DNA of 64,000 nucleotides from the NCBI GenBank assembly GCA_039811685.1, contig JBDHZC010000007.1, positions 96,001 to 160,000 of the forward strand. The letters run 5' to 3'. Positions 54,950 to 64,000 of the stretch are shown piece after piece. The position numbers and the translations under genes were made by a program. Source of the DNA: Armatimonadota bacterium (GTDB taxonomy: Bacteria > Armatimonadota > UBA5829 > DSUL01). Numbering within the stretch: the stretch's first letter is position 1; each line of letters opens with the position of its first letter. The notes beneath the pieces are model-generated. The model was not told the origin of the DNA and ran no database searches. It saw only the letters and a list, made by a program, of their open reading frames with translations.

Positions 54950-56053
54950 ATGGCTGAAGCTACGAAAGTCGGCATCATTGGATGCGGCAATATCAGCGAC
55001 ATTTACTTCCAGAATCTTCAGAAGTACGAGACGACGGAAGTGGTTGCGTGCGCTGATCTTTTCCTGGAGCGGGCACGGGAGAAAGCGGCAAAGTGGAATG
55101 TTCCGAAGGCGTGTTCTCCTGAGGAGCTGCTGAGCGATCCGGACGTTAAAATCGTTGTCAACCTGACGATTCCGATTGCTCATGCGGAGGTCTCGCAGAT
55201 GGCGGTGGAAGCTGGCAAGTCTTCTCACTGCGAAAAACCTCTCACGATAACGCGTGAAGACGGAAAGCGCCTGCTGGCCACAGCCAGGGACAAAGGCGTG
55301 CGGATTGGCGCGGCGCCGGACACCTTCATGGGCGCAGGTATTCAGACGTGCCGCGAGCTTCTGGACTCCGGGGCGATAGGCGAGCCGGTGGCGTGCACGG
55401 CATTCATGGTGTGTCACGGGCATGAAAGCTGGCATCCTGATCCCGAGTTTTACTACAAACTCGGCGGGGGGCCGATGTTTGACATGGGGCCGTACTATCT
55501 GACAGCGCTTGTCAATCTACTGGGCCCCGTCAAGAGAGTGACAGGGTCCACCCGCATCACCTTTCCGGAGCGCAGGATAACCAGTGAGCCAAAGCGTGGT
55601 CAGGTTATCAAAGTGGACGTACCGACGCACATCGCGGGAGTCATGGACTTTCAGAGCGGGGCTATAGGCACGATCATCCAGAGCTTCGACGTCTGGCATC
55701 ACCGCCTGCCCTGTATCGAGATCTATGGCACGGAAGGATCCATGCAGGTTCCGGATCCCAATGGCTTTGGCGGGCCGGTGCGCATCCGCAAGCAGGGTGA
55801 TTCTGACTGGCAGGATGTGGAGATCACGCGGCCGTACGCGGAAAACTCCCGCGGCATCGGCGTGGCGGACATGGCCTGCGCAATCAGCTCAGGACGCAAA
55901 CACCGCGCCAGTGGCGATCTGGCCTATCACGTGCTTGACCTGATGCACGCCTTCCACGACGCCTCAGACGAAGGCAGGCATATCCTGGTGCAGAGCACCT
56001 GCGAGCGCCCTGCCCCGATGCCTGTAAGCGGCGAAAACGGCAAGCTCGACTAA
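54950..56053 (+). CDS. Gfo/Idh/MocA family oxidoreductase
   Basis: GCGNIS, NLTIP.AH, EKP, APDTFMG and [12 protein letters not shown] motifs. Confidence 0.92.
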
Positions 56054-56085
56054 CAGGCTCTGAAGGGTCTGTCTGTGCTGATACA

Positions 56086-56120
56086 AGCGGGGCGCAGTTG
56101 TCCGCGCCCCGCTCTCTGCT
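56086..56120 (+). terminator. Hairpin, probable terminator before the RM locus
   Basis: 10-bp stem AGCGGGGCGC/GCGCCCCGCT with a pyrimidine-rich tail. Confidence 0.55.
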
Positions 56121-56157
56121 TCTGCCGCGCACTTGAGCGCAATCCCGGAAAGCTGTC

Positions 56158-56187
56158 TTGACGCCGCCCGCGCGCCCGCTCTATGAT
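56158..56187 (+). promoter_or_regulatory. Sigma70 promoter of the hsd operon
   Basis: TTGACG-N18-TATGAT, 57 nt before the hsdM ATG. Confidence 0.6.
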
Positions 56188-56244
56188 GAGACCGGCGCAA
56201 GAAACGCCGCCAACATCCATTGCGCTGAGGAAACGCCCGCTTAT

Positions 56245-57699
56245 ATGTTTGAACAAGCCTTCAGGAACATTGACGATGTTCTCCGCAAAGAAGCCGGATG
56301 CACCACCGAGCTGGACTACACAGAGCAGACCTCCTGGCTGCTTTTTCTGAAGTATCTTGACGGCCTCGAACAGGACCGCGCCACCGAAGCGGCGCTTGAC
56401 CGCAGGCCCTACAGCTACATTCTGGATGAGCCATACCGCTGGAACGCCTGGGCGGCCCCGCATGATTCTGACGGGAATCCAGACCGGCAGCGGCAGATGA
56501 TAGGGGATGACCTGGCAGGGTTCGTGAACGCGAAGCTGTTTCCGTATCTTCAGGGCTTCAGCCAGCGCGCCAGTGGCCCAAAGACGATTGAGTACAAGAT
56601 CGGGCAGATATTCGGCGAGATCAAGAACAAAATCACCAGCGGCTACAACCTGCGTGAGATTATTGACCAGATTGACGCGCTGCGGTTCCGGTCACAGAAA
56701 GAGAAGTACGAACTCTCGCACCTGTACGAAGCGAAGATACAGAATATGGGCAACGCGGGGCGCAACGGCGGCGAGTACTACACCCCGCGCCCGCTTATTC
56801 GCGCTATCGCGAAGGTTGTCAACCCGCAGATTGGCGAGACGGTTTACGACGGCGCATGCGGCTCAGCCGGCTTCCTTTGCGAAGCGTTCGACTATATGAA
56901 AGAGAAGCCGAACCTTACGACGGAAGAGATGGAGACGCTTCAGACGCGCACTTTCTACGGGCGGGAGAAGAAGCCGCTGGCCTTTGTGATTGGCACGATG
57001 AATATGATTCTGCACGGGATTGACGCTCCGGAGATAGAGCACGTCAATACGCTGGCGCAGAACGAGATGGAGATACAGGAGGCGGACCGCAAAGATGTCA
57101 TCCTCGCCAATCCTCCGTTTGGCGGCAAGGAGCGCGCGGAAGTGCAGCAGAACTTTTCCATCCGCACGGGAGAGACAGCGTTTCTGTTTTTGCAGCATTT
57201 CATCCGCATGCTTCGCGCAGGCGGGCGCGCGGGCGTAGTGATCAAGAATACGTTTCTCTCAAACACGGATAACGCCTCCGTCAGTCTGCGCAAGCGGCTT
57301 CTGGAAACCTGCAACCTGCACACGATTCTGGACTGCCCGAGTGGGACGTTTCAGGGGGCTGGCGTGAAAACCGTGGTGTTGTTCTTCGAGAAGGGCGCGC
57401 CTACACAGAAGGTCTGGTACTACCAGCTTGACCCGGGACGCAGCCTGGGGAAAACAAATCCACTGAACGATGACGACCTGCAGGAGTTTGTGACACTTCA
57501 GAAGGACTTCGCAGATTCTCAGCAATCCTGGACGGTGGAAGCCGCGTCTATCAACCGCGAAACGTGGGATCTGTCCGTAAGGAACCCGAACAATGGCGTG
57601 GAAGCAAAGTATCGCACGCCGCAGGAGATCATCGAAGAGATAGAAACCCTGGACCGCGAGAGCGCCGAGCTGTTGAAGTCAATACGGGGGCTGCTGTGA
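56245..57699 (+). CDS. hsdM: Type I RM N6-adenine methyltransferase subunit
   Basis: GEYYTPR, YDGACGSAGFL and NPPF motifs. Confidence 0.95.
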   Translation: MFEQAFRNIDDVLRKEAGCTTELDYTEQTSWLLFLKYLDGLEQDRATEAALDRRPYSYILDEPYRWNAWAAPHDSDGNPDRQRQMIGDDLAGFVNAKLFPYLQGFSQRASGPKTIEYKIGQIFGEIKNKITSGYNLREIIDQIDALRFRSQKEKYELSHLYEAKIQNMGNAGRNGGEYYTPRPLIRAIAKVVNPQIGETVYDGACGSAGFLCEAFDYMKEKPNLTTEEMETLQTRTFYGREKKPLAFVIGTMNMILHGIDAPEIEHVNTLAQNEMEIQEADRKDVILANPPFGGKERAEVQQNFSIRTGETAFLFLQHFIRMLRAGGRAGVVIKNTFLSNTDNASVSLRKRLLETCNLHTILDCPSGTFQGAGVKTVVLFFEKGAPTQKVWYYQLDPGRSLGKTNPLNDDDLQEFVTLQKDFADSQQSWTVEAASINRETWDLSVRNPNNGVEAKYRTPQEIIEEIETLDRESAELLKSIRGLL

Positions 57700-58907
57700 A
57701 ACAGGCCTTTAGCACCGAGAGTCTTGGAGCTATCTGCGGGATAGAAATTGGCCGGACACCTTCACGATCAAACCCTCAACTGTGGGACGCGTCGAAGAAA
57801 ACCGGGAACGTGTGGCTATCAATTGCGGACTTGGCAAACGGCCAGGGTCACACCGTTTTCGATAGCCGGGAATACATTTCGCACGAAGCGGCTTCGCAAT
57901 GCAGACTTGTGTCAAAAGGAACTCTGCTTGTGAGCTTCAAGTTAACGCTCGGTCGTCTTGCATTTGCGGGACGAGATCTGTATACGAATGAGGCCATTGC
58001 GGCCCTGCGCCTAAAGACAACCGAGGTTAGCCCAGCCTATCTGTACTACTATCTAACTTTTTTTGACTGGGAAGACGCGTGTCAAGGAGACACAAAGATA
58101 AAAGGCAGGACGCTCAACAAGGCTAAGCTGGCCCGGATACTTGTCCGAGTCCCGCCCCTCCCGGAGCAGCGGCGGATTGTGGCGATTCTGGACAAAGCTT
58201 TCGCCGCCATTGACAAGGCCAGGGCAAATACCGAAAAGAACCTCGCCAACGCACGGGAGCTGTTCGAGAGCTATCTGAATGAGGTGTTCACGAAGAGGGG
58301 AGAGGGGTGGCAGACGATCCCCTTGGCCGAAGCAGTTACGGTTGACTGCACTCTATCCTATGGCATTGTCCAGCCAGGGCCAGAGTGTGACACCGGTCTG
58401 CCGGTAGTGCGGCCAGTTGACCTTCTTGGGAAGGCCGTTGGCCTTGCCGGTCTGAAGCGGATCAAGCCTATATTGGCCGCCAGGTACAAGCGTACTACTC
58501 TGCAGGGCAACGAGTTGCTCTTAGCGGTTCGCGGAAGCACGGGCGTAGTCGCGCTTGCAGCCCCAGAACTGGAGGGGGCGAACGTGACCAGGGGCATTGT
58601 CCCGGTACGGCTGGAGCCGACCCTGGTTCACAAGCACTTCAGCTACTACCTCTTTCTATCGCCGCTAGTAAAGGACCAGATAGCTGCGGCCACATATGGG
58701 GCGGCACTGCAGGGGATAAACATTGCTGATGTCCGCAAGGTCCGACTTGCATTGCCGCCTCTGGGACAGCAGGCGGAGATTGCAGCCTCCCTAGAAGCGG
58801 TGGACAGAGCTTGCGGCGGCCTTGGCGCAAAAGCAACGCGCAGGCTCGCCACCCTCGACGAATTGAAGAAATCGCTGCTGCATCAGGCGTTTGAGGGGGA
58901 GCTGTAG
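57696..58907 (+). CDS. hsdS: Type I RM specificity subunit (two TRDs)
   Basis: Two TRD + PPL.EQ..I repeats and a terminal LKKSLLHQAF.GEL; GTGA overlap with hsdM. Confidence 0.93.
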   Translation: MKQAFSTESLGAICGIEIGRTPSRSNPQLWDASKKTGNVWLSIADLANGQGHTVFDSREYISHEAASQCRLVSKGTLLVSFKLTLGRLAFAGRDLYTNEAIAALRLKTTEVSPAYLYYYLTFFDWEDACQGDTKIKGRTLNKAKLARILVRVPPLPEQRRIVAILDKAFAAIDKARANTEKNLANARELFESYLNEVFTKRGEGWQTIPLAEAVTVDCTLSYGIVQPGPECDTGLPVVRPVDLLGKAVGLAGLKRIKPILAARYKRTTLQGNELLLAVRGSTGVVALAAPELEGANVTRGIVPVRLEPTLVHKHFSYYLFLSPLVKDQIAAATYGAALQGINIADVRKVRLALPPLGQQAEIAASLEAVDRACGGLGAKATRRLATLDELKKSLLHQAFEGEL

Positions 58908-58930
58908 CGGATGCAAGTCAGAACCGTAAC

Positions 58931-59545
58931 TTGTCCACGCAGATTGAGGAGGGGCCGCTCGTTCTGACTTCAGTGCCACCGACCTTTATGCTGATAGCAG
59001 GCCCGAATGGAGCGGGCAAGACTACGTCGGCTAATCTACTGCTCCCGGAGACAACGCCGTACGTCAACGCGGACAATATTGCGCGCAACCTACCGCCGCG
59101 ACCTGGGCGCAGCCTTGACGTGGAAGCAGGACGCCGCATGCTGCAGGAAGTAGACCGGCTCCTGAAATCTGGCTCCGATGTCGCGGTAGAAACAACGCTG
59201 GCAGCGCGATCTTTTGTTCGGCGCGTACTTTTTGCGAAGCAGAAGGGTTATCAGGTATGGTTGATCTTCCTGTGGCTGCCCTCCCCGGACCTGGCGATAG
59301 CACGGGTCGCACAGCGCGTTGAGAGTGGAGGGCATTCCGTGCCGGAGCCAGTCATCCGGCGGCGCTACTGTCGCGGGATCCAGAATTTCTTCCGGCTCTA
59401 CCGGGCTGCTGTGGATGGCTGGCGCTTTTACGACAGCAGCCCGCTCTATGCGCCCAAAGTCATTGCCACAAGGCTGCCAGGCCAGGAGGAAACTGTGCTC
59501 AGCCCTGAGGTATGGGATAAGATCATGAAGGAGTCCAACCTATGA
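58931..59545 (+). CDS. Zeta-toxin-like P-loop kinase/ATPase (COG4185-like)
   Basis: IAGPNGAGKTT Walker A; YVNAD, ETTL and RV..RV..GGH.VPE..IRRRY motifs. Confidence 0.85.
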   Translation: MSTQIEEGPLVLTSVPPTFMLIAGPNGAGKTTSANLLLPETTPYVNADNIARNLPPRPGRSLDVEAGRRMLQEVDRLLKSGSDVAVETTLAARSFVRRVLFAKQKGYQVWLIFLWLPSPDLAIARVAQRVESGGHSVPEPVIRRRYCRGIQNFFRLYRAAVDGWRFYDSSPLYAPKVIATRLPGQEETVLSPEVWDKIMKESNL

Positions 59546-59736
59546 CGGATATCAAGAAGCATCCCCTTGCCGAGCGTCTCAGCAACTGTACACGCATTGA
59601 CGCCCTCATCCGCAGGGCTATGAGGGAGGCCGTATCGGAGCACAGACGTGCAGGCCGCGCGGTAGCCACATGGGAGAATGGTAAGGTCGTACTGGTCGCG
59701 CCACAGCCCCCATCCGCACGGCGTCCAAAGGATTAG
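59542..59736 (+). CDS. Small partner protein (putative antitoxin)
   Basis: 64 aa; ATGA overlap with the kinase stop; AAGGAG RBS; A..EH.R.G......GKVV pattern. Confidence 0.7.
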   Translation: MTDIKKHPLAERLSNCTRIDALIRRAMREAVSEHRRAGRAVATWENGKVVLVAPQPPSARRPKD

Positions 59737-59758
59737 TCCAGCACTGCGACGCGCAACA

Positions 59759-62161
59759 ATGAACGAAGCCGAAACCAGAGCTGAACATATTGATCCCGCA
59801 CTGAAGGAGGCTGGCTGGGGCGTTGCAGAGGGCAGCCGCATCCTGCGCGAGCACCGCATCACCTTGGGGCGTATCGAGAGCAAGCATCAGGGCGTTCTGA
59901 AGCGGGCGGAGCCGACCGTCGCGGACTACGTGCTCGTAGTGCGCAACCGCAAGCTGGCCGTCATCGAAGCCAAACCCTGGGATGCGCCTGTGACCGAAGG
60001 TCTCGGAAAGGCCAAGCGCTATGCCGAGCTAATGGAGGCGCCCTTTGCGTTCTCTACCAACGGACAGGGCATTTACCGCGTGGATATGCGCTCCGGCACG
60101 GAAGGCCACGTCGCACAGTACCCCACACCGGAGGAGCTCTGGAACCTCACGTTCGGCGCGGGCAATGAATGGCGCGACCGCTTCGCCGCTGTTCTGCCTG
60201 CAGATGCGGGCAGTCAGTTTCAAACGCGCTACTACCAGGACATCGCCATCGAGCGCACGCTGCAGGCTATCGCGGATGGCAAGGACCGCCTGCTTCTGAC
60301 GCTGGCTACCGGCACAGGCAAGACGTTCATCGCCTTCCAGATCTGCTGGAAACTGTTTCACGCGCGCTGGAATCTGAGCCGCCAGCCCACACGCCTGCCA
60401 CGCATCCTGTTTCTGGCGGATCGCAATGTGCTCGCTAATCAGGCTTTCAACGCCTTTTCAAGGTTTCCAGACGACGCAATGACACGCGTTGACCCGGCCT
60501 CCATCCGCAGGAAAGGGCGAGTGCCGACTAACGCCAGCTTGTTCTTTACGATTTTTCAGACCTTTATGTGCGGCCCGGAGGTGGACGGAAAACCCTCACC
60601 CTACTTCGGTGACTATCCGGCTGATTTCTTCGACTTTATTATCATAGACGAATGCCACCGCGGCGGCGCAAGCAATGAGAGCACCTGGCGCGGGATTCTG
60701 GAATACTTCAAGCACGCCGTGCAGCTTGGGCTAACCGCAACGCCCCGCCGCGATGAGAACATTGACACCTATCGCTACTTCGGCGAACCGATCTATACCT
60801 ATTCGCTGAAGCAGGGCATCAACGACGGATACCTCACACCGTTTCGCCTGAAGCAGTACGCGACGACTATAGATGAGTATCTGTACGCGCCAGACGACGC
60901 AGTTGTCGAAGGGGAGATTGAGGAAGGCCGCCGCTACAAGGAATCAGACTTCAACCGCATCATCGAGATCAAAGAGCGCGAAAAGTTCCGCGTCAATCTA
61001 TTCATGCAGCAGATTGACCAGAATGAAAAAACCCTTGTATTCTGCGCTTCGCAGGAGCACGCCCTGGCCGTCCGAGACCTGATCAACGAGCTTAAGACAG
61101 TTGGCGACCCCAACTACTGTCACCGGGTGACGGCCGATGAGGGCGAATTAGGGGAGCTGCATCTGCGCGAGTTTCAAGACAACGAGCGCACGACCCCGAC
61201 CATTCTTACTACGTCGCACAAGCTGTCCACGGGCGTGGATGCGCTGAATATCCGGAATATCGTGCTGATGCGGCCAATCAGGTCGCTGATCGAGTTCAAA
61301 CAGATTATCGGCCGCGGAACGAGGCTCTACGAAGGCAAGGCGTACTTCACCATCCACGACTTTGTAAAAGCCTATGAACATTTCAACGATCCGGAGTGGG
61401 ACGGCGAACCTGTCGAGCCAGACCTCTGCCCGAAGTGTGGAGAGTCCCCCTGCACCTGCGAGAAAACCCCTCCTCCGCCTCCTCCAACATGCCCGGTGTG
61501 TGGTAAGAGCCCTTGCGAATGTCCGCGCGAACCTTGCCCCGTCTGCGGACAGGTTCGGTGTATCTGTAAACGCAACAGGATAGTCGTCAAGCTCGCGGAC
61601 GGGAAAGAGCGACGCCTGCAGGCGATGATGGCGACGGGCTTCTACCATCCGGACGGCAAGCCGATGTCCGCGCAGCAGTTTCTGGAGGCGCTGTTTGGGA
61701 GACTGCCGGAGTTCTTCAAGGATGAGGACGAGCTGCGCCAGATATGGGCTGACCCTGAAACCCGGACAAAGCTTCTCCAATCGCTCGAAACAGAGGGCTT
61801 CGGCCTGGAGGCGCTCCGGGAGATGCAGAGACTGATACAGGCTGAAGACAGCGATCTGTTCGACGTGCTGGCTTACGTGGCTTACGCGACCGACACGGTA
61901 ACTCGCGAACAGCGAGCCTCCCTTGCTATGCGGCGCATTGGGGCGGAGTACGAAGAGAAGCAGCGCGCCTTCATTGAGTTTGTGCTGGGGCACTATGTCA
62001 ACGTGGGTGTCGAGGAGCTCGCGCCGGAGAAACTGAACGCCCTGCTCAAGCTCCGGTACCATTCAGCCATCGCAGACGCAACAGCAGACCTCGGCTCACC
62101 CCGTCAGATACGGCAGATATTCGACGGATTTCAAAAGTACCTGTACGTTCCGCAGCAGTAG
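59759..62161 (+). CDS. hsdR: Type I RM restriction subunit (EcoAI/EcoEI-like)
   Basis: ADYVL...IEAK nuclease motif; ATGTGKT, DECHR, LTATP and QIIGRGTR helicase motifs; DSDLFDVL C-terminal domain. Confidence 0.95.
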   Translation: MNEAETRAEHIDPALKEAGWGVAEGSRILREHRITLGRIESKHQGVLKRAEPTVADYVLVVRNRKLAVIEAKPWDAPVTEGLGKAKRYAELMEAPFAFSTNGQGIYRVDMRSGTEGHVAQYPTPEELWNLTFGAGNEWRDRFAAVLPADAGSQFQTRYYQDIAIERTLQAIADGKDRLLLTLATGTGKTFIAFQICWKLFHARWNLSRQPTRLPRILFLADRNVLANQAFNAFSRFPDDAMTRVDPASIRRKGRVPTNASLFFTIFQTFMCGPEVDGKPSPYFGDYPADFFDFIIIDECHRGGASNESTWRGILEYFKHAVQLGLTATPRRDENIDTYRYFGEPIYTYSLKQGINDGYLTPFRLKQYATTIDEYLYAPDDAVVEGEIEEGRRYKESDFNRIIEIKEREKFRVNLFMQQIDQNEKTLVFCASQEHALAVRDLINELKTVGDPNYCHRVTADEGELGELHLREFQDNERTTPTILTTSHKLSTGVDALNIRNIVLMRPIRSLIEFKQIIGRGTRLYEGKAYFTIHDFVKAYEHFNDPEWDGEPVEPDLCPKCGESPCTCEKTPPPPPPTCPVCGKSPCECPREPCPVCGQVRCICKRNRIVVKLADGKERRLQAMMATGFYHPDGKPMSAQQFLEALFGRLPEFFKDEDELRQIWADPETRTKLLQSLETEGFGLEALREMQRLIQAEDSDLFDVLAYVAYATDTVTREQRASLAMRRIGAEYEEKQRAFIEFVLGHYVNVGVEELAPEKLNALLKLRYHSAIADATADLGSPRQIRQIFDGFQKYLYVPQQ

Positions 62162-62316
62162 CGATGGACATCTTTTGACACTGTCTGACACTCCACTTTC
62201 AGGTTCTCTGCCCACAGTTGGGTATGGCCCCCTACAGACGAAGAAGGATGAGACGGAACAGGCCGCGAGTTTGACACTCGCGGCCTGCAAGTACAAGCGC
62301 CTGTAGAGTGAGCCGC

Positions 62317-64000
62317 CTACGGATTGCGGACTTCCATTTCCGCGTCTCTGGACCTAGCCCTCAGCACACGGATGTTCTGTCCGTTGACCCTTTCAGCGGT
62401 GATCACTCCTACTATGGTCAGGTACTCTCCTTCCGCTGGAATGGACGAGGAGTCTATAATTTTTACTCCGCGCTGTCCCGGAATGAGCGGGTCCACCTGA
62501 CTGCCATCATCGAGAAGGAAGTAGGAGTCTATGTAGTTGACATAGGAAACACGGCCTGAGATCATCACAAGGAGGCCCTGGTTTTCCGCCCCATGACCGG
62601 CGCTGTCTATGTAGGTCTCACCGCCCAGACTCCGGTTGGTGATATAGCGGATTGGTGTGGTAGCCTGCGCGTCACCCAGCGTGAACGTCGCGTCACGCAG
62701 CACCCTCTCACCATTCGGATTAGTGCCTATAACGCCCTTGAGGCGCACGCTGTCTCCTACTGTCGAGATCCACGCTGTTCCCGAACCAGTCTTGCTGGCT
62801 GCTCCTGCTGAGGGCAGAGTGGGCATGGTGGTCTCAACGCGAATGCCAGCGCTTCCATCCGGATCCTGCGCATAGAACACGCCCGCCTCTCCCAGTGGAA
62901 CAAGCGTTACAACGCTGTCCGCTGTGAACTCCGCAAACGAATGGTCGGCAAGCTGGCGAGCCTTTCCAACGCTGGCAACTTCTGTAGGCTCAGGCGTCGC
63001 GCCGGTCAGGCGCACATCATCCACAGCCATCAGGTTGACCTGGAGGCCCCACAGCTGCACCAGCCGGACAAACACAGTCACCGCATTGGACTGTGCCACA
63101 ACAGGCGGAGTGGTGAAGTCATCCGTCCAGACACCAAGGTTCGTCTCTGGCGCTGGAAATATCCGGTAATCCTCCGACCACTTCTGGGCCCAGACTATGC
63201 CGGGATTCAACGGGTCCACACCACCCATCGGGTCAATCCCCACCCAGACCTGTACATCCGACCACTGCGCATCCCCAATCCCAAATGGGCCAGGGGTCTC
63301 TTCCGAGGCGTTCGCCGCTCTTGCGATTGTTACGTAGTCAAAGCTCGCTTGATAGGTCTCTCCGGGGACAGCCTGGACACGTTGGCACACACCACCCCCC
63401 TTTATCGTATGGCTGGCCATCGAGCCGAGGAAATAGCTTCCCTCGTTAGCCTTGACTAGGCCCCACCATTCCTGCGTCCCTGAAGACGGATATGGCCCCA
63501 CAAGACCATCCACGGCCAACGCCGGATAGACCGTGAAAGGCTTCCACGGCGCCAACGTATGCTGATACTGGTCATCCAGGTCGTCGAAGCCTCCATTGCG
63601 CAGGAAAGGCTCCGCCGGACCCGGTGTCTCGAACGTTGCATTTCGGGATACAGCGGCCTCATAGCCAGGGGCCTCGCTTACGACCCGATACGTGTAAACG
63701 TGCTGTGGGTCCAGTCCAGTCACAACAACCGAATGCTGCTGAGTCAGGCCGGTCTGCACGGTTTGCAGATCGTACTTGATGCCTTCATCGTCATTCTGCC
63801 AGTCTGGATCGTACTGAACCGTAGAAGCAGAGGGCACGTCCGTCTCCCAGATTATCTCGAAAGAGGAATCTGAGAGCTGCCGCGCCTGCGGGCCATCCAC
63901 AATGTTTATCAGTGGTTCTGTCGCCTCGGTGAGGGACACGTTGTCGATGTCCAGATGGGCGCCGTTTTCCGCGCCTTCTTTGGTGGCCTTGAGACCGGAT
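62317..64000 (-). CDS. Large secreted or surface protein (FN3-like + jelly-roll + OB-fold-like C-terminus); 5' end outside the window
   Basis: Frame stays open to 64000; W.TD....V.Y...H.V..TGL....Y.YRV FN3 pattern, LRNGGFD jelly-roll start, FY.QD..GIRV and GLLV..SG.V...YF.LDDGS repeats. Confidence 0.75.
   Translation of the reverse strand, partial: SGLKATKEGAENGAHLDIDNVSLTEATEPLINIVDGPQARQLSDSSFEIIWETDVPSASTVQYDPDWQNDDEGIKYDLQTVQTGLTQQHSVVVTGLDPQHVYTYRVVSEAPGYEAAVSRNATFETPGPAEPFLRNGGFDDLDDQYQHTLAPWKPFTVYPALAVDGLVGPYPSSGTQEWWGLVKANEGSYFLGSMASHTIKGGGVCQRVQAVPGETYQASFDYVTIARAANASEETPGPFGIGDAQWSDVQVWVGIDPMGGVDPLNPGIVWAQKWSEDYRIFPAPETNLGVWTDDFTTPPVVAQSNAVTVFVRLVQLWGLQVNLMAVDDVRLTGATPEPTEVASVGKARQLADHSFAEFTADSVVTLVPLGEAGVFYAQDPDGSAGIRVETTMPTLPSAGAASKTGSGTAWISTVGDSVRLKGVIGTNPNGERVLRDATFTLGDAQATTPIRYITNRSLGGETYIDSAGHGAENQGLLVMISGRVSYVNYIDSYFLLDDGSQVDPLIPGQRGVKIIDSSSIPAEGEYLTIVGVITAERVNGQNIRVLRARSRDAEMEVRNP

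Follow-up and report, generated by a model that had tools for sequence, protein, structure and literature searches.

What is a kinase related to zeta toxins doing inside a type I restriction-modification (RM) operon? We analysed a stretch of 64,000 nucleotides (nt) from an Armatimonadota bacterium (contig JBDHZC010000007.1, positions 96,001 to 160,000; hereafter the window). In it, genes for a short P-loop kinase and a 64-amino-acid protein lie between hsdS and hsdR, at positions 58931 to 59736. The original prediction, made from the letters alone, had proposed a toxin-antitoxin-like second line of defence triggered by anti-restriction proteins, after the model of the anticodon nuclease PrrC, or an addiction module stabilising the locus. 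Our analysis indicates that the pair is probably an autonomous, mobile cassette, similar to a toxin-antitoxin (TA) system, that rides as a passenger of defence loci. The data are best fitted by a known kind of toxin, a short kinase of the zeta/PezT-Mtb type, combined with a previously undescribed downstream partner.

The kinase gene (58931..59545, plus strand; 204 amino acids when read from TTG 58931) encodes a short zeta/PezT-type enzyme and candidate toxin. It matched the Pfam family Zeta_toxin (PF06414) with 41.7 bits, above the cut-off of 22.3 (E = 1.1e-10), over profile positions 15-162 of 199, and also matched AAA_33. PADLOC, one of the searches suggested with the original prediction, and NCBIfam held no family for the kinase or its partner, except for a match of the kinase to mad3 that was limited to Walker A. 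When 8000 candidates were scored, 3389 proteins fell into the kinase family at E≤1e-3. Their source names were 'predicted ABC-type ATPase', 'zeta toxin family protein' and 'AAA family ATPase'.

The Walker A sequence, GPNGAGKT, occupies residues 24-31. In an alignment of 32 kinases, GPNGAGK, N46-A47-D48, E87/T89, R125, R129, G133-G134-H135, R143 and R145 were invariant, and with them the family motifs NAD, ETT and RVxxRVxxGGH; the Walker A and the NAD aspartate had already been read as intact in the window, and this reading holds across the homologues. The family profile alignment placed the aspartate of NAD (D48) on the second Asp of 'DGD' in PezT, and ETT on EGT in PezT. The catalytic aspartate is given as D67 in zeta and D66 in PezT (PMC6362051). 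As judged from its sequence and fold, the kinase is a zeta/Pnk-type phosphotransferase with an intact set of catalytic residues (Pnk, polynucleotide kinase).

One element of the classical zeta toxins is missing. The kinase lacks the GTXR motif for UDP-N-acetylglucosamine (UDP-GlcNAc, or UNAG): it reads E87-T-T-L-A-A-R93, with the arginine four residues past the threonine and not two. Loss of this motif has also been published for Rv0366c. UDP-GlcNAc, and with it cell-wall synthesis, is therefore an unlikely target, and the parallel to poisoning of cell-wall synthesis drawn in the original prediction is not supported. The kinase probably acts on a different substrate of the nucleotide type or on the end of a nucleic acid. 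No gene for an epsilon or PezA antitoxin lies immediately upstream of the kinase gene, where hsdS is found instead.

The predicted fold agrees with the family assignment. With the AlphaFold (AF2) model of the kinase (pLDDT 94.8), Foldseek returned AvrRxo1-ORF1 first (4z8q_A, E 3e-9, TMq 0.72), then zeta (1.8e-6) and PezT (3.1e-6). The VIA Z scores were 15.6 for zeta (1gvn_B, 177 residues aligned), 15.0 for PezT and 15.0 for AvrRxo1 (186-189 aligned), and the alignments to these three proteins took in 169-189 residues. The top VIA score was that of Clostridium thermocellum Pnk (4gp7_A, Z 16.5, 154 residues aligned), and O-phosphoseryl-tRNA kinase and T4 Pnk scored high as well. Zeta and AvrRxo1 aligned over more of the kinase than Pnk did (177-189 vs 154 residues), including its C-terminal 25 residues.

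For the small partner, candidate antitoxin of an unnamed family (59542..59736, plus strand), we used the genome loci of the best 80 of 230 confirmed kinase relatives. A word-index search with the 64-amino-acid protein matched itself alone; its family was recovered by synteny with the kinase gene and an iterated hidden Markov model (HMM). In 67 of the 80 loci, a homologous open reading frame (ORF) of 49-91 amino acids starts between -34 and +6 nt from the kinase stop codon, and the typical size in the family is 50-80 amino acids. Kinase and partner domain are fused in one frame in L039 (2055-2855), L063 (7971-8624) and L080 (7959-8618), while in L055 the fusion is degenerate. The conserved overlap and these natural fusions indicate that kinase and partner work together. 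Zeta_toxin above its cut-off, the fold matches to zeta, PezT and AvrRxo1, and a conserved partner that is translationally coupled and sometimes fused make the two genes look like a TA pair, and this part of the original prediction is retained.

The partner family is large. A search of 1.84 billion with a profile of 52 members gave 6492 cluster representatives at the E≤1e-3 threshold, of which 1011 reached E≤1e-10. All relatives that we looked up are named 'hypothetical protein', and a protein atlas likewise gave 'hypothetical protein' clusters alone, with scores ≤0.85. The model of the window's protein (pLDDT 82) consists of a long helix at residues 8-37 and a beta-hairpin at 41-52. A likeness to Phd/YefM, suspected from the motif 'G.P..V.RDGK.V', was dropped after hhalign gave it a probability of 0.4%.

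The remaining 13 loci include the four with fusions; another of them, L042, ends at a contig edge. In L040 and in L046, the small overlapping ORF is of yet another kind and is HMM-negative, and no small ORF was found 3′ of the kinase gene in L012, L047, L052 and L053. In L054 (588-779) and L057 (8504-8692), whose kinases belong to a divergent alphaproteobacterial clade, a different small overlapping ORF stands downstream in place of the partner; the ORFs of the two loci resemble one another and have the motif GTREE.SGRFLP in common. Distant kinase relatives, with about 33% identity, were also seen in the stable-inheritance region of E. coli IncP-like 41-kb plasmids (L116, 3744-4585). There the small ORF overlaps upstream of the kinase gene and not downstream, so the partner and the gene order vary between clades.

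Where, then, is the cassette found? We scanned the ORFs within 3.5 kb of it with Pfam (366 of 446 greedy ORFs; distal ones were dropped for size). Most neighbours were unrelated housekeeping genes. The ORF 5′ of the cassette had the same direction in 61 of 70 loci, and in 42 of 70 it ended no more than 120 nt away. As a rule, the cassette is therefore the final gene downstream of a promoter that belongs to another gene. Further neighbours were TA genes (PIN, ParDE, HipBA, PemK), transposases, an integrase, AAA_14-DUF4143 ATPases, SIR2, SMODS and Schlafen/AlbA_2 proteins. Kinase relatives were present on 615 of 72,556 plasmid records, all with less than 60% identity. In phage genomes they were hardly present, with 4 weak partial matches only. 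Phyla were intermingled on a quick maximum-likelihood tree of the kinase. These observations are best fitted by a cassette that is autonomous and horizontally mobile and that accumulates on plasmids and in defence loci.

RM genes are a minority among the neighbours and yet more common than expected. In about 15 of the 80 loci, a domain of a DNA methyltransferase or of the restriction type was close by (L004, L010, L012, L015, L028, L037, L044, L051, L052, L055, L058, L063, L066, L069 and, by tblastn, L072). L056 had an ambiguous ResIII helicase nearby, and about 64 of the 80 loci had no RM-type Pfam domain within 3.5 kb. Six of the 80 loci had N6_Mtase within this distance, where about 0.46 would be expected from 317 N6_Mtase matches in 121 genomes of the window's phylum (about 0.6 per Mb, with a mean genome of 4.3 Mb assumed). 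This control is approximate, since it compares different taxa and treats related loci as independent. In a published control around a housekeeping gene, RM Pfams were reported at 0.3-0.8% (PMC12715929). The cassette thus adjoins methylase or restriction genes well above chance. One such locus, L010 (86-10084), is BREX-like: inside it, the kinase pair has a PglX-type methylase together with an AlbA_2/HATPase_c_4 protein on one side and BrxL on the other. Proteins of the AlbA_2/HATPase_c_4 type are also encoded directly 5′ of the pair in L028 and L066.

The slot between hsdS and hsdR was occupied by the pair in two loci besides the type IB operon of the window. A Geobacter metagenome-assembled genome (L037) has the order hsdM-hsdS-kinase-partner-hsdR with an hsdR of the HSDR_N/T1RH type, and its HsdM is 24% identical to that of the window. 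On plasmid pSYSG of Synechocystis PCC 6803, the order is hsdM-[DUF433, PIN-like]-hsdS-[MNT nucleotidyltransferase]-[kinase sll8004, partner ssl8003]-[DarT, DarG]-hsdR. This plasmid locus (L114, NC_005231.1, 1-8346, minus strand) holds four accessory modules in one type I operon; its hsdR spans the record origin and is absent from the PLSDB gene table. On the quick tree, the kinase of the window belongs to another major clade than those of L037 and pSYSG, and the branches concerned require at least two independent origins of the slot position for the three cases.

Within the window's own type of operon, the pair is an exception. Among 301 genomes of the phylum to which the window belongs, 33 had an EcoAI-type hsdR; in its own family, 0 of 4 genomes had one. 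None of 29 other EcoAI-type hsdR loci had the kinase in the flank examined (about 1.5 kb or less). An enrichment of the pair in RM loci, suggested as a check with the original prediction, is supported in part: it is commoner than chance beside methylase or restriction genes and has entered the slot in different type I families, but was not seen in the 29 other EcoAI-type loci. The nine closest orthologues of the operon are 58-69% identical, and all eight with upstream sequence, together with L058, have other cargo directly 5′ of hsdR. This cargo is an ImmA/IrrE peptidase with DUF4411 in L083; a 23S_rRNA_IVP-like protein with a Top1-type Zn ribbon in L084, L090 and L058; RhuM in L086; PDDEXK_3 in L087 and L091; GmrSD_C-DUF5655 in L089; and two ORFs of unknown type in L088. 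The hsdS gene is visible 5′ of the cargo in L084, L086, L087, L090, L091 and L058 only. In L058, a kinase pair is located 1.3 kb 3′ of hsdR, past RhuM and PIN genes. In view of this varied cargo, accessory genes are interchangeable at the position just 5′ of hsdR in this operon family, where the kinase pair turns up occasionally.

From these observations we propose the following course of events. The kinase would be a toxin; it has retained the ATP-binding P-loop, its catalytic aspartate and the conserved Glu, Arg and His. Its partner, translated from the overlapping start codon, would bind the kinase and keep it inactive. The cassette would typically insert behind the 3′ end of a gene that runs in the same direction, and read-through from the promoter of that gene would express it. 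In the window, it has taken the place between hsdS and hsdR in a type IB operon, a position of variable cargo. The likely effect there would be stabilisation of the locus (addiction), growth arrest when expression of the operon or that of the partner breaks down, as in phage infection, or both.

Several points weigh against a toxin held by an antitoxin. Many copies are behind housekeeping genes, which is compatible with a harmless accessory enzyme. The kinases of L012, L047 and L052 retain all catalytic motifs with no partner nearby, which is hard to square with a lethal toxin. Neither a DNA-binding fold nor a known antitoxin fold was recognised in the partner: none of the 52 members scanned had a Pfam family, and its model had no match in the PDB, Arc1 included (Foldseek, E≤0.001, a search of weak power for such a short model). 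In the window the order is toxin first, the reverse of epsilon-zeta, PezAT and Rv0367c-Rv0366c. The likeness to Rv0366c of M. tuberculosis, set out below, rests on printed residue numbers and not on a tool alignment. Finally, the fold scores leave zeta-type and polynucleotide kinases tied (Z 16.5 for the C. thermocellum enzyme), and the best PDB sequence match of the kinase profile was Pnkp1 (E 1.3e-4, profile positions 4-135), ahead of PezT (4.4e-3).

These points bear on three other explanations. The last of them could mean that the kinase is of the polynucleotide 5′-kinase type and acts on the ends of RNA or DNA. It could then be an accessory of defence loci for repair or modification, or else a toxin directed at nucleic acids, and the small protein would be its adaptor. 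Both the best VIA score and the best profile match speak for such an enzyme, as do the high VIA scores of O-phosphoseryl-tRNA kinase and T4 Pnk. Pfam, however, assigns Zeta_toxin and AAA_33 and no Pnk family, and zeta and AvrRxo1 give the longer alignments, which include the C-terminus. The kinase is a single domain, and no phosphatase or ligase neighbour recurred in the 366 scanned ORFs. We consider this explanation unlikely, although a real alternative. The housekeeping neighbours could instead point to a benign kinase of a small molecule (a nucleotide or cofactor), an accessory metabolic gene whose small partner is a regulatory or stabilising subunit. The cassette is indeed often the last gene behind genes for an ABC transporter, methylmalonyl-CoA mutase, LepA, AsnS, ThiC or HypE, the lone kinases with intact motifs fit such a role, and the P-loop kinase fold is common to many metabolic kinases. 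A metabolic role is hard to reconcile with a patchy distribution across phyla, the frequency on plasmids, and TA and defence genes as neighbours with no constant metabolic partner gene. Moreover, the best full-length fold matches are toxins, and the relative with like spacing, Rv0366c, has been published as toxic (PMC6362051). A benign role, also a real alternative, appears improbable to us.

The explanation closest to the original prediction is a guard of the PrrC type, in which the kinase would be kept latent by the Hsd complex, alone or together with the small protein, and would fire, causing abortive infection, when an anti-restriction protein of a phage disables the restriction enzyme. 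The slot is the same as that of prrC in EcoprrI (PMC12707154), and it was entered in three cases with at least two origins. A methylase or restriction gene is directly 5′ of the cassette and co-directional in L044, L051, L055 and L063, and the excess of N6_Mtase could be read in the same way. Such a guard would depend on the RM system, whereas most cassettes have no RM gene nearby, the cassette carries its own conserved or fused partner, and none of the 29 other EcoAI-type loci has the kinase. For these three reasons a PrrC-style guard is disfavoured. In addition, close orthologues of the operon have unrelated cargo directly 5′ of hsdR, the slot in pSYSG, with DarTG and an MNT gene, looks like a pile-up of independent modules, and the kinase has no similarity to PrrC. 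We thus hold a dedicated guard to be an improbable explanation and an autonomous TA-like cassette to be the better one.

A more specific proposal can be made for the autonomous cassette, which we put forward tentatively as a rather unlikely possibility. The cassette might be an uncatalogued abortive-infection module: infection would free the kinase from its helix-hairpin inhibitor, and the kinase would phosphorylate a nucleotide cofactor (AvrRxo1-like, e.g. NAD) or nucleic-acid ends. The hsdS-hsdR junction would then be a general docking bay for second-line modules that are co-expressed with restriction. The modules seen in this slot or directly 5′ of hsdR are the kinase pair, DarTG, MNT, ImmA/IrrE-DUF4411, RhuM, PDDEXK_3 and GmrSD_C. 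If the kinase turned out to be a toxin that is triggered by phage, a new enzymatic effector, possibly with a new target, would be added to the abortive-infection mechanisms.

The operon of the window consists of five co-oriented genes on the plus strand: hsdM, hsdS, the kinase gene, the 64-amino-acid ORF and hsdR. The methyltransferase subunit is encoded by hsdM (56245..57699; N6_Mtase 1.4e-61, HsdM_N, and PADLOC MTase_I 5.8e-159, aligned from residue 30), which is likely to start at ATG 56245, while the mechanical ORF opens at TTG 56158. The specificity gene hsdS (57696..58907; Methylase_S 8.7e-24 in two stretches, PADLOC Specificity_I 5.3e-44) is likely to start at GTG 57696, in a GTGA overlap with the hsdM stop codon; its mechanical ORF opens at 57564. 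The restriction subunit is encoded by hsdR (59759..62161), with ResIII and EcoEI_R_C domains and a match to the NCBIfam model NF046051 (3e-236 over 1-796). This match to the model of EcoAI-family R proteins begins at position 1, with 786.5 bits against a cut-off of 550, and is consistent with a start at ATG 59759. As the Hsd identities are backed by Pfam, PADLOC and NCBIfam, the hsdM-hsdS-hsdR operon can be assigned firmly, on sequence evidence, to type IB (the EcoAI family). A Cys-rich insert at residues 557-603 of HsdR (61427-61567) separates the helicase from the EcoEI_R_C domain. It contains three CPxCG..C.C repeats as well as a poly-proline run and looks like a chain of small zinc ribbons.

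The kinase pair was correctly described as lying in this co-oriented array with gaps of 23 and 22 nt and an ATGA overlap, for the starts given. The first gap runs from the hsdS stop (58907) to TTG 58931, the ATG of the small ORF overlaps the TGA of the kinase gene, and the second gap ends at the hsdR ATG. The kinase start is uncertain because homologues open about 7-15 residues ahead of Walker A and P17 is nearly invariant. The predicted alternatives GTG 58973 (190 amino acids) and ATG 58988 (185 amino acids) are at least as likely as TTG 58931, and they would widen the gap after hsdS to 65 or 80 nt. A database entry 100% identical to the kinase has the length of 185 amino acids.

A sigma-70-like promoter site (TTGACG-18-TATGAT, 56158..56187, plus strand) was found 5′ of hsdM by consensus match only, at 10 of 12 positions. 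No further promoter-like site or terminator was found on the plus strand until 61014, inside hsdR, which agrees with the suggestion of one promoter for all five genes. As the 3 promoter-like sites of the region were no more than in shuffles (2.4), a single promoter is plausible without being demonstrated. In metatranscriptomes, two runs gave contigs over parts of hsdM and hsdS only, and DNA carry-over is possible in these.

The earlier statement that no insertion sequence ends flank the pair was confirmed, as no direct or terminal inverted repeats were found in a repeat search around it. The G+C content of the pair (0.58-0.61) equals that of its flanks, so there is no compositional signal of an insertion. 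For the operon as a whole, the absence of the RM system from the 4 other genomes of the family suggests horizontal acquisition. Metagenomes of activated sludge and wastewater, produced in at least 13 studies, contain DNA near-identical to 56000-62400.

Parts of this picture are present in earlier work. Kopfmann et al. (2016) listed sll8001-ssl8005, within a defence island on pSYSG, as 'related to TA modules' but short of the criteria applied (PMC4963859). Most zeta/PezT homologues in genomes are 'orphans' that lack a known antitoxin. A 2023 survey of PezAT reported many orphan zeta homologues, with upstream genes alone searched (PMC10532202). A 2025 review named PrrC and PARIS as RM guardians (PMC12707154). 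In the literature searched, which did not cover the supplementary tables of PMC10532202 and PMC4963859, neither the partner family nor its RM embedding was described beyond the listing in PMC4963859. The present results point to a downstream partner family, backed by fusions, for a cross-phylum clade of otherwise 'orphan' zeta/PezT homologues. They also mark the position directly 5′ of hsdR in this operon family as a hotspot for interchangeable modules, which bears on how defence islands are assembled.

How does the cassette compare with known systems? It shares with epsilon-zeta and PezAT the Pfam family, the P-loop, the catalytic Asp and Glu, the fold (Z 15-15.6) and the two-gene organisation. 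It differs in a kinase about 80 residues shorter, without the UNAG motif, and in having no epsilon or PezA antitoxin. The kinase-partner fusions resemble the fused antitoxin-toxin EzeT, although the order in EzeT is opposite. AvrRxo1-ORF1 with its inhibitor ORF2 (Arc1) is alike in being the best Foldseek match and in the order of genes, a kinase gene followed by a small cognate inhibitor gene; the kinase of the window (204 amino acids) lacks the N-terminal secretion region, and the solved AvrRxo1 chains have 329-332 residues. PrrC in EcoprrI (type IC) is likewise encoded by an accessory gene inside a type I operon, adjoining hsdS and hsdR. It is, however, an anticodon nuclease, an unrelated protein that depends on its RM partner, whereas the present cassette mostly occurs without any RM system.

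Rv0366c of M. tuberculosis is reported to be bacteriostatic, to be rescued by its neighbouring partner, to lack a UNAG site and to have a pocket nearer to that of AvrRxo1 (PMC6362051). As far as its published residues go, both kinases are short (about 190-200 amino acids), carry GPNGAGK(S/T), lack GTXR and have the same spacing of Asp, Glu, Arg and His: 9-GPNGAGKS-16, D36, E75, R116 and H122 in Rv0366c correspond to G24, D48 (plus a gap of 3 residues), E87, R129 and H135 in the window. The partner of Rv0366c, Rv0367c, is described as an upstream, ribbon-helix-helix (RHH)/ParD-like protein of about 129 amino acids, unlike the downstream helix-hairpin protein of the window with its unnamed family. 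The Rv0366c-Rv0367c system (PezAT-Mtb) is reported to be confined to Actinobacteria (PMC6362051), while the clade of the window's kinase extends over many phyla and plasmids. Finally, sll8004-ssl8003 on pSYSG shares with the window a kinase of 48% identity, a partner of the same family (HMM E 4.8e-19) and the hsdS-hsdR slot. It differs in the type I family of its operon and in sharing the slot with the MNT-type nucleotidyltransferase and DarT-DarG, and it offers a tractable case in a model organism.

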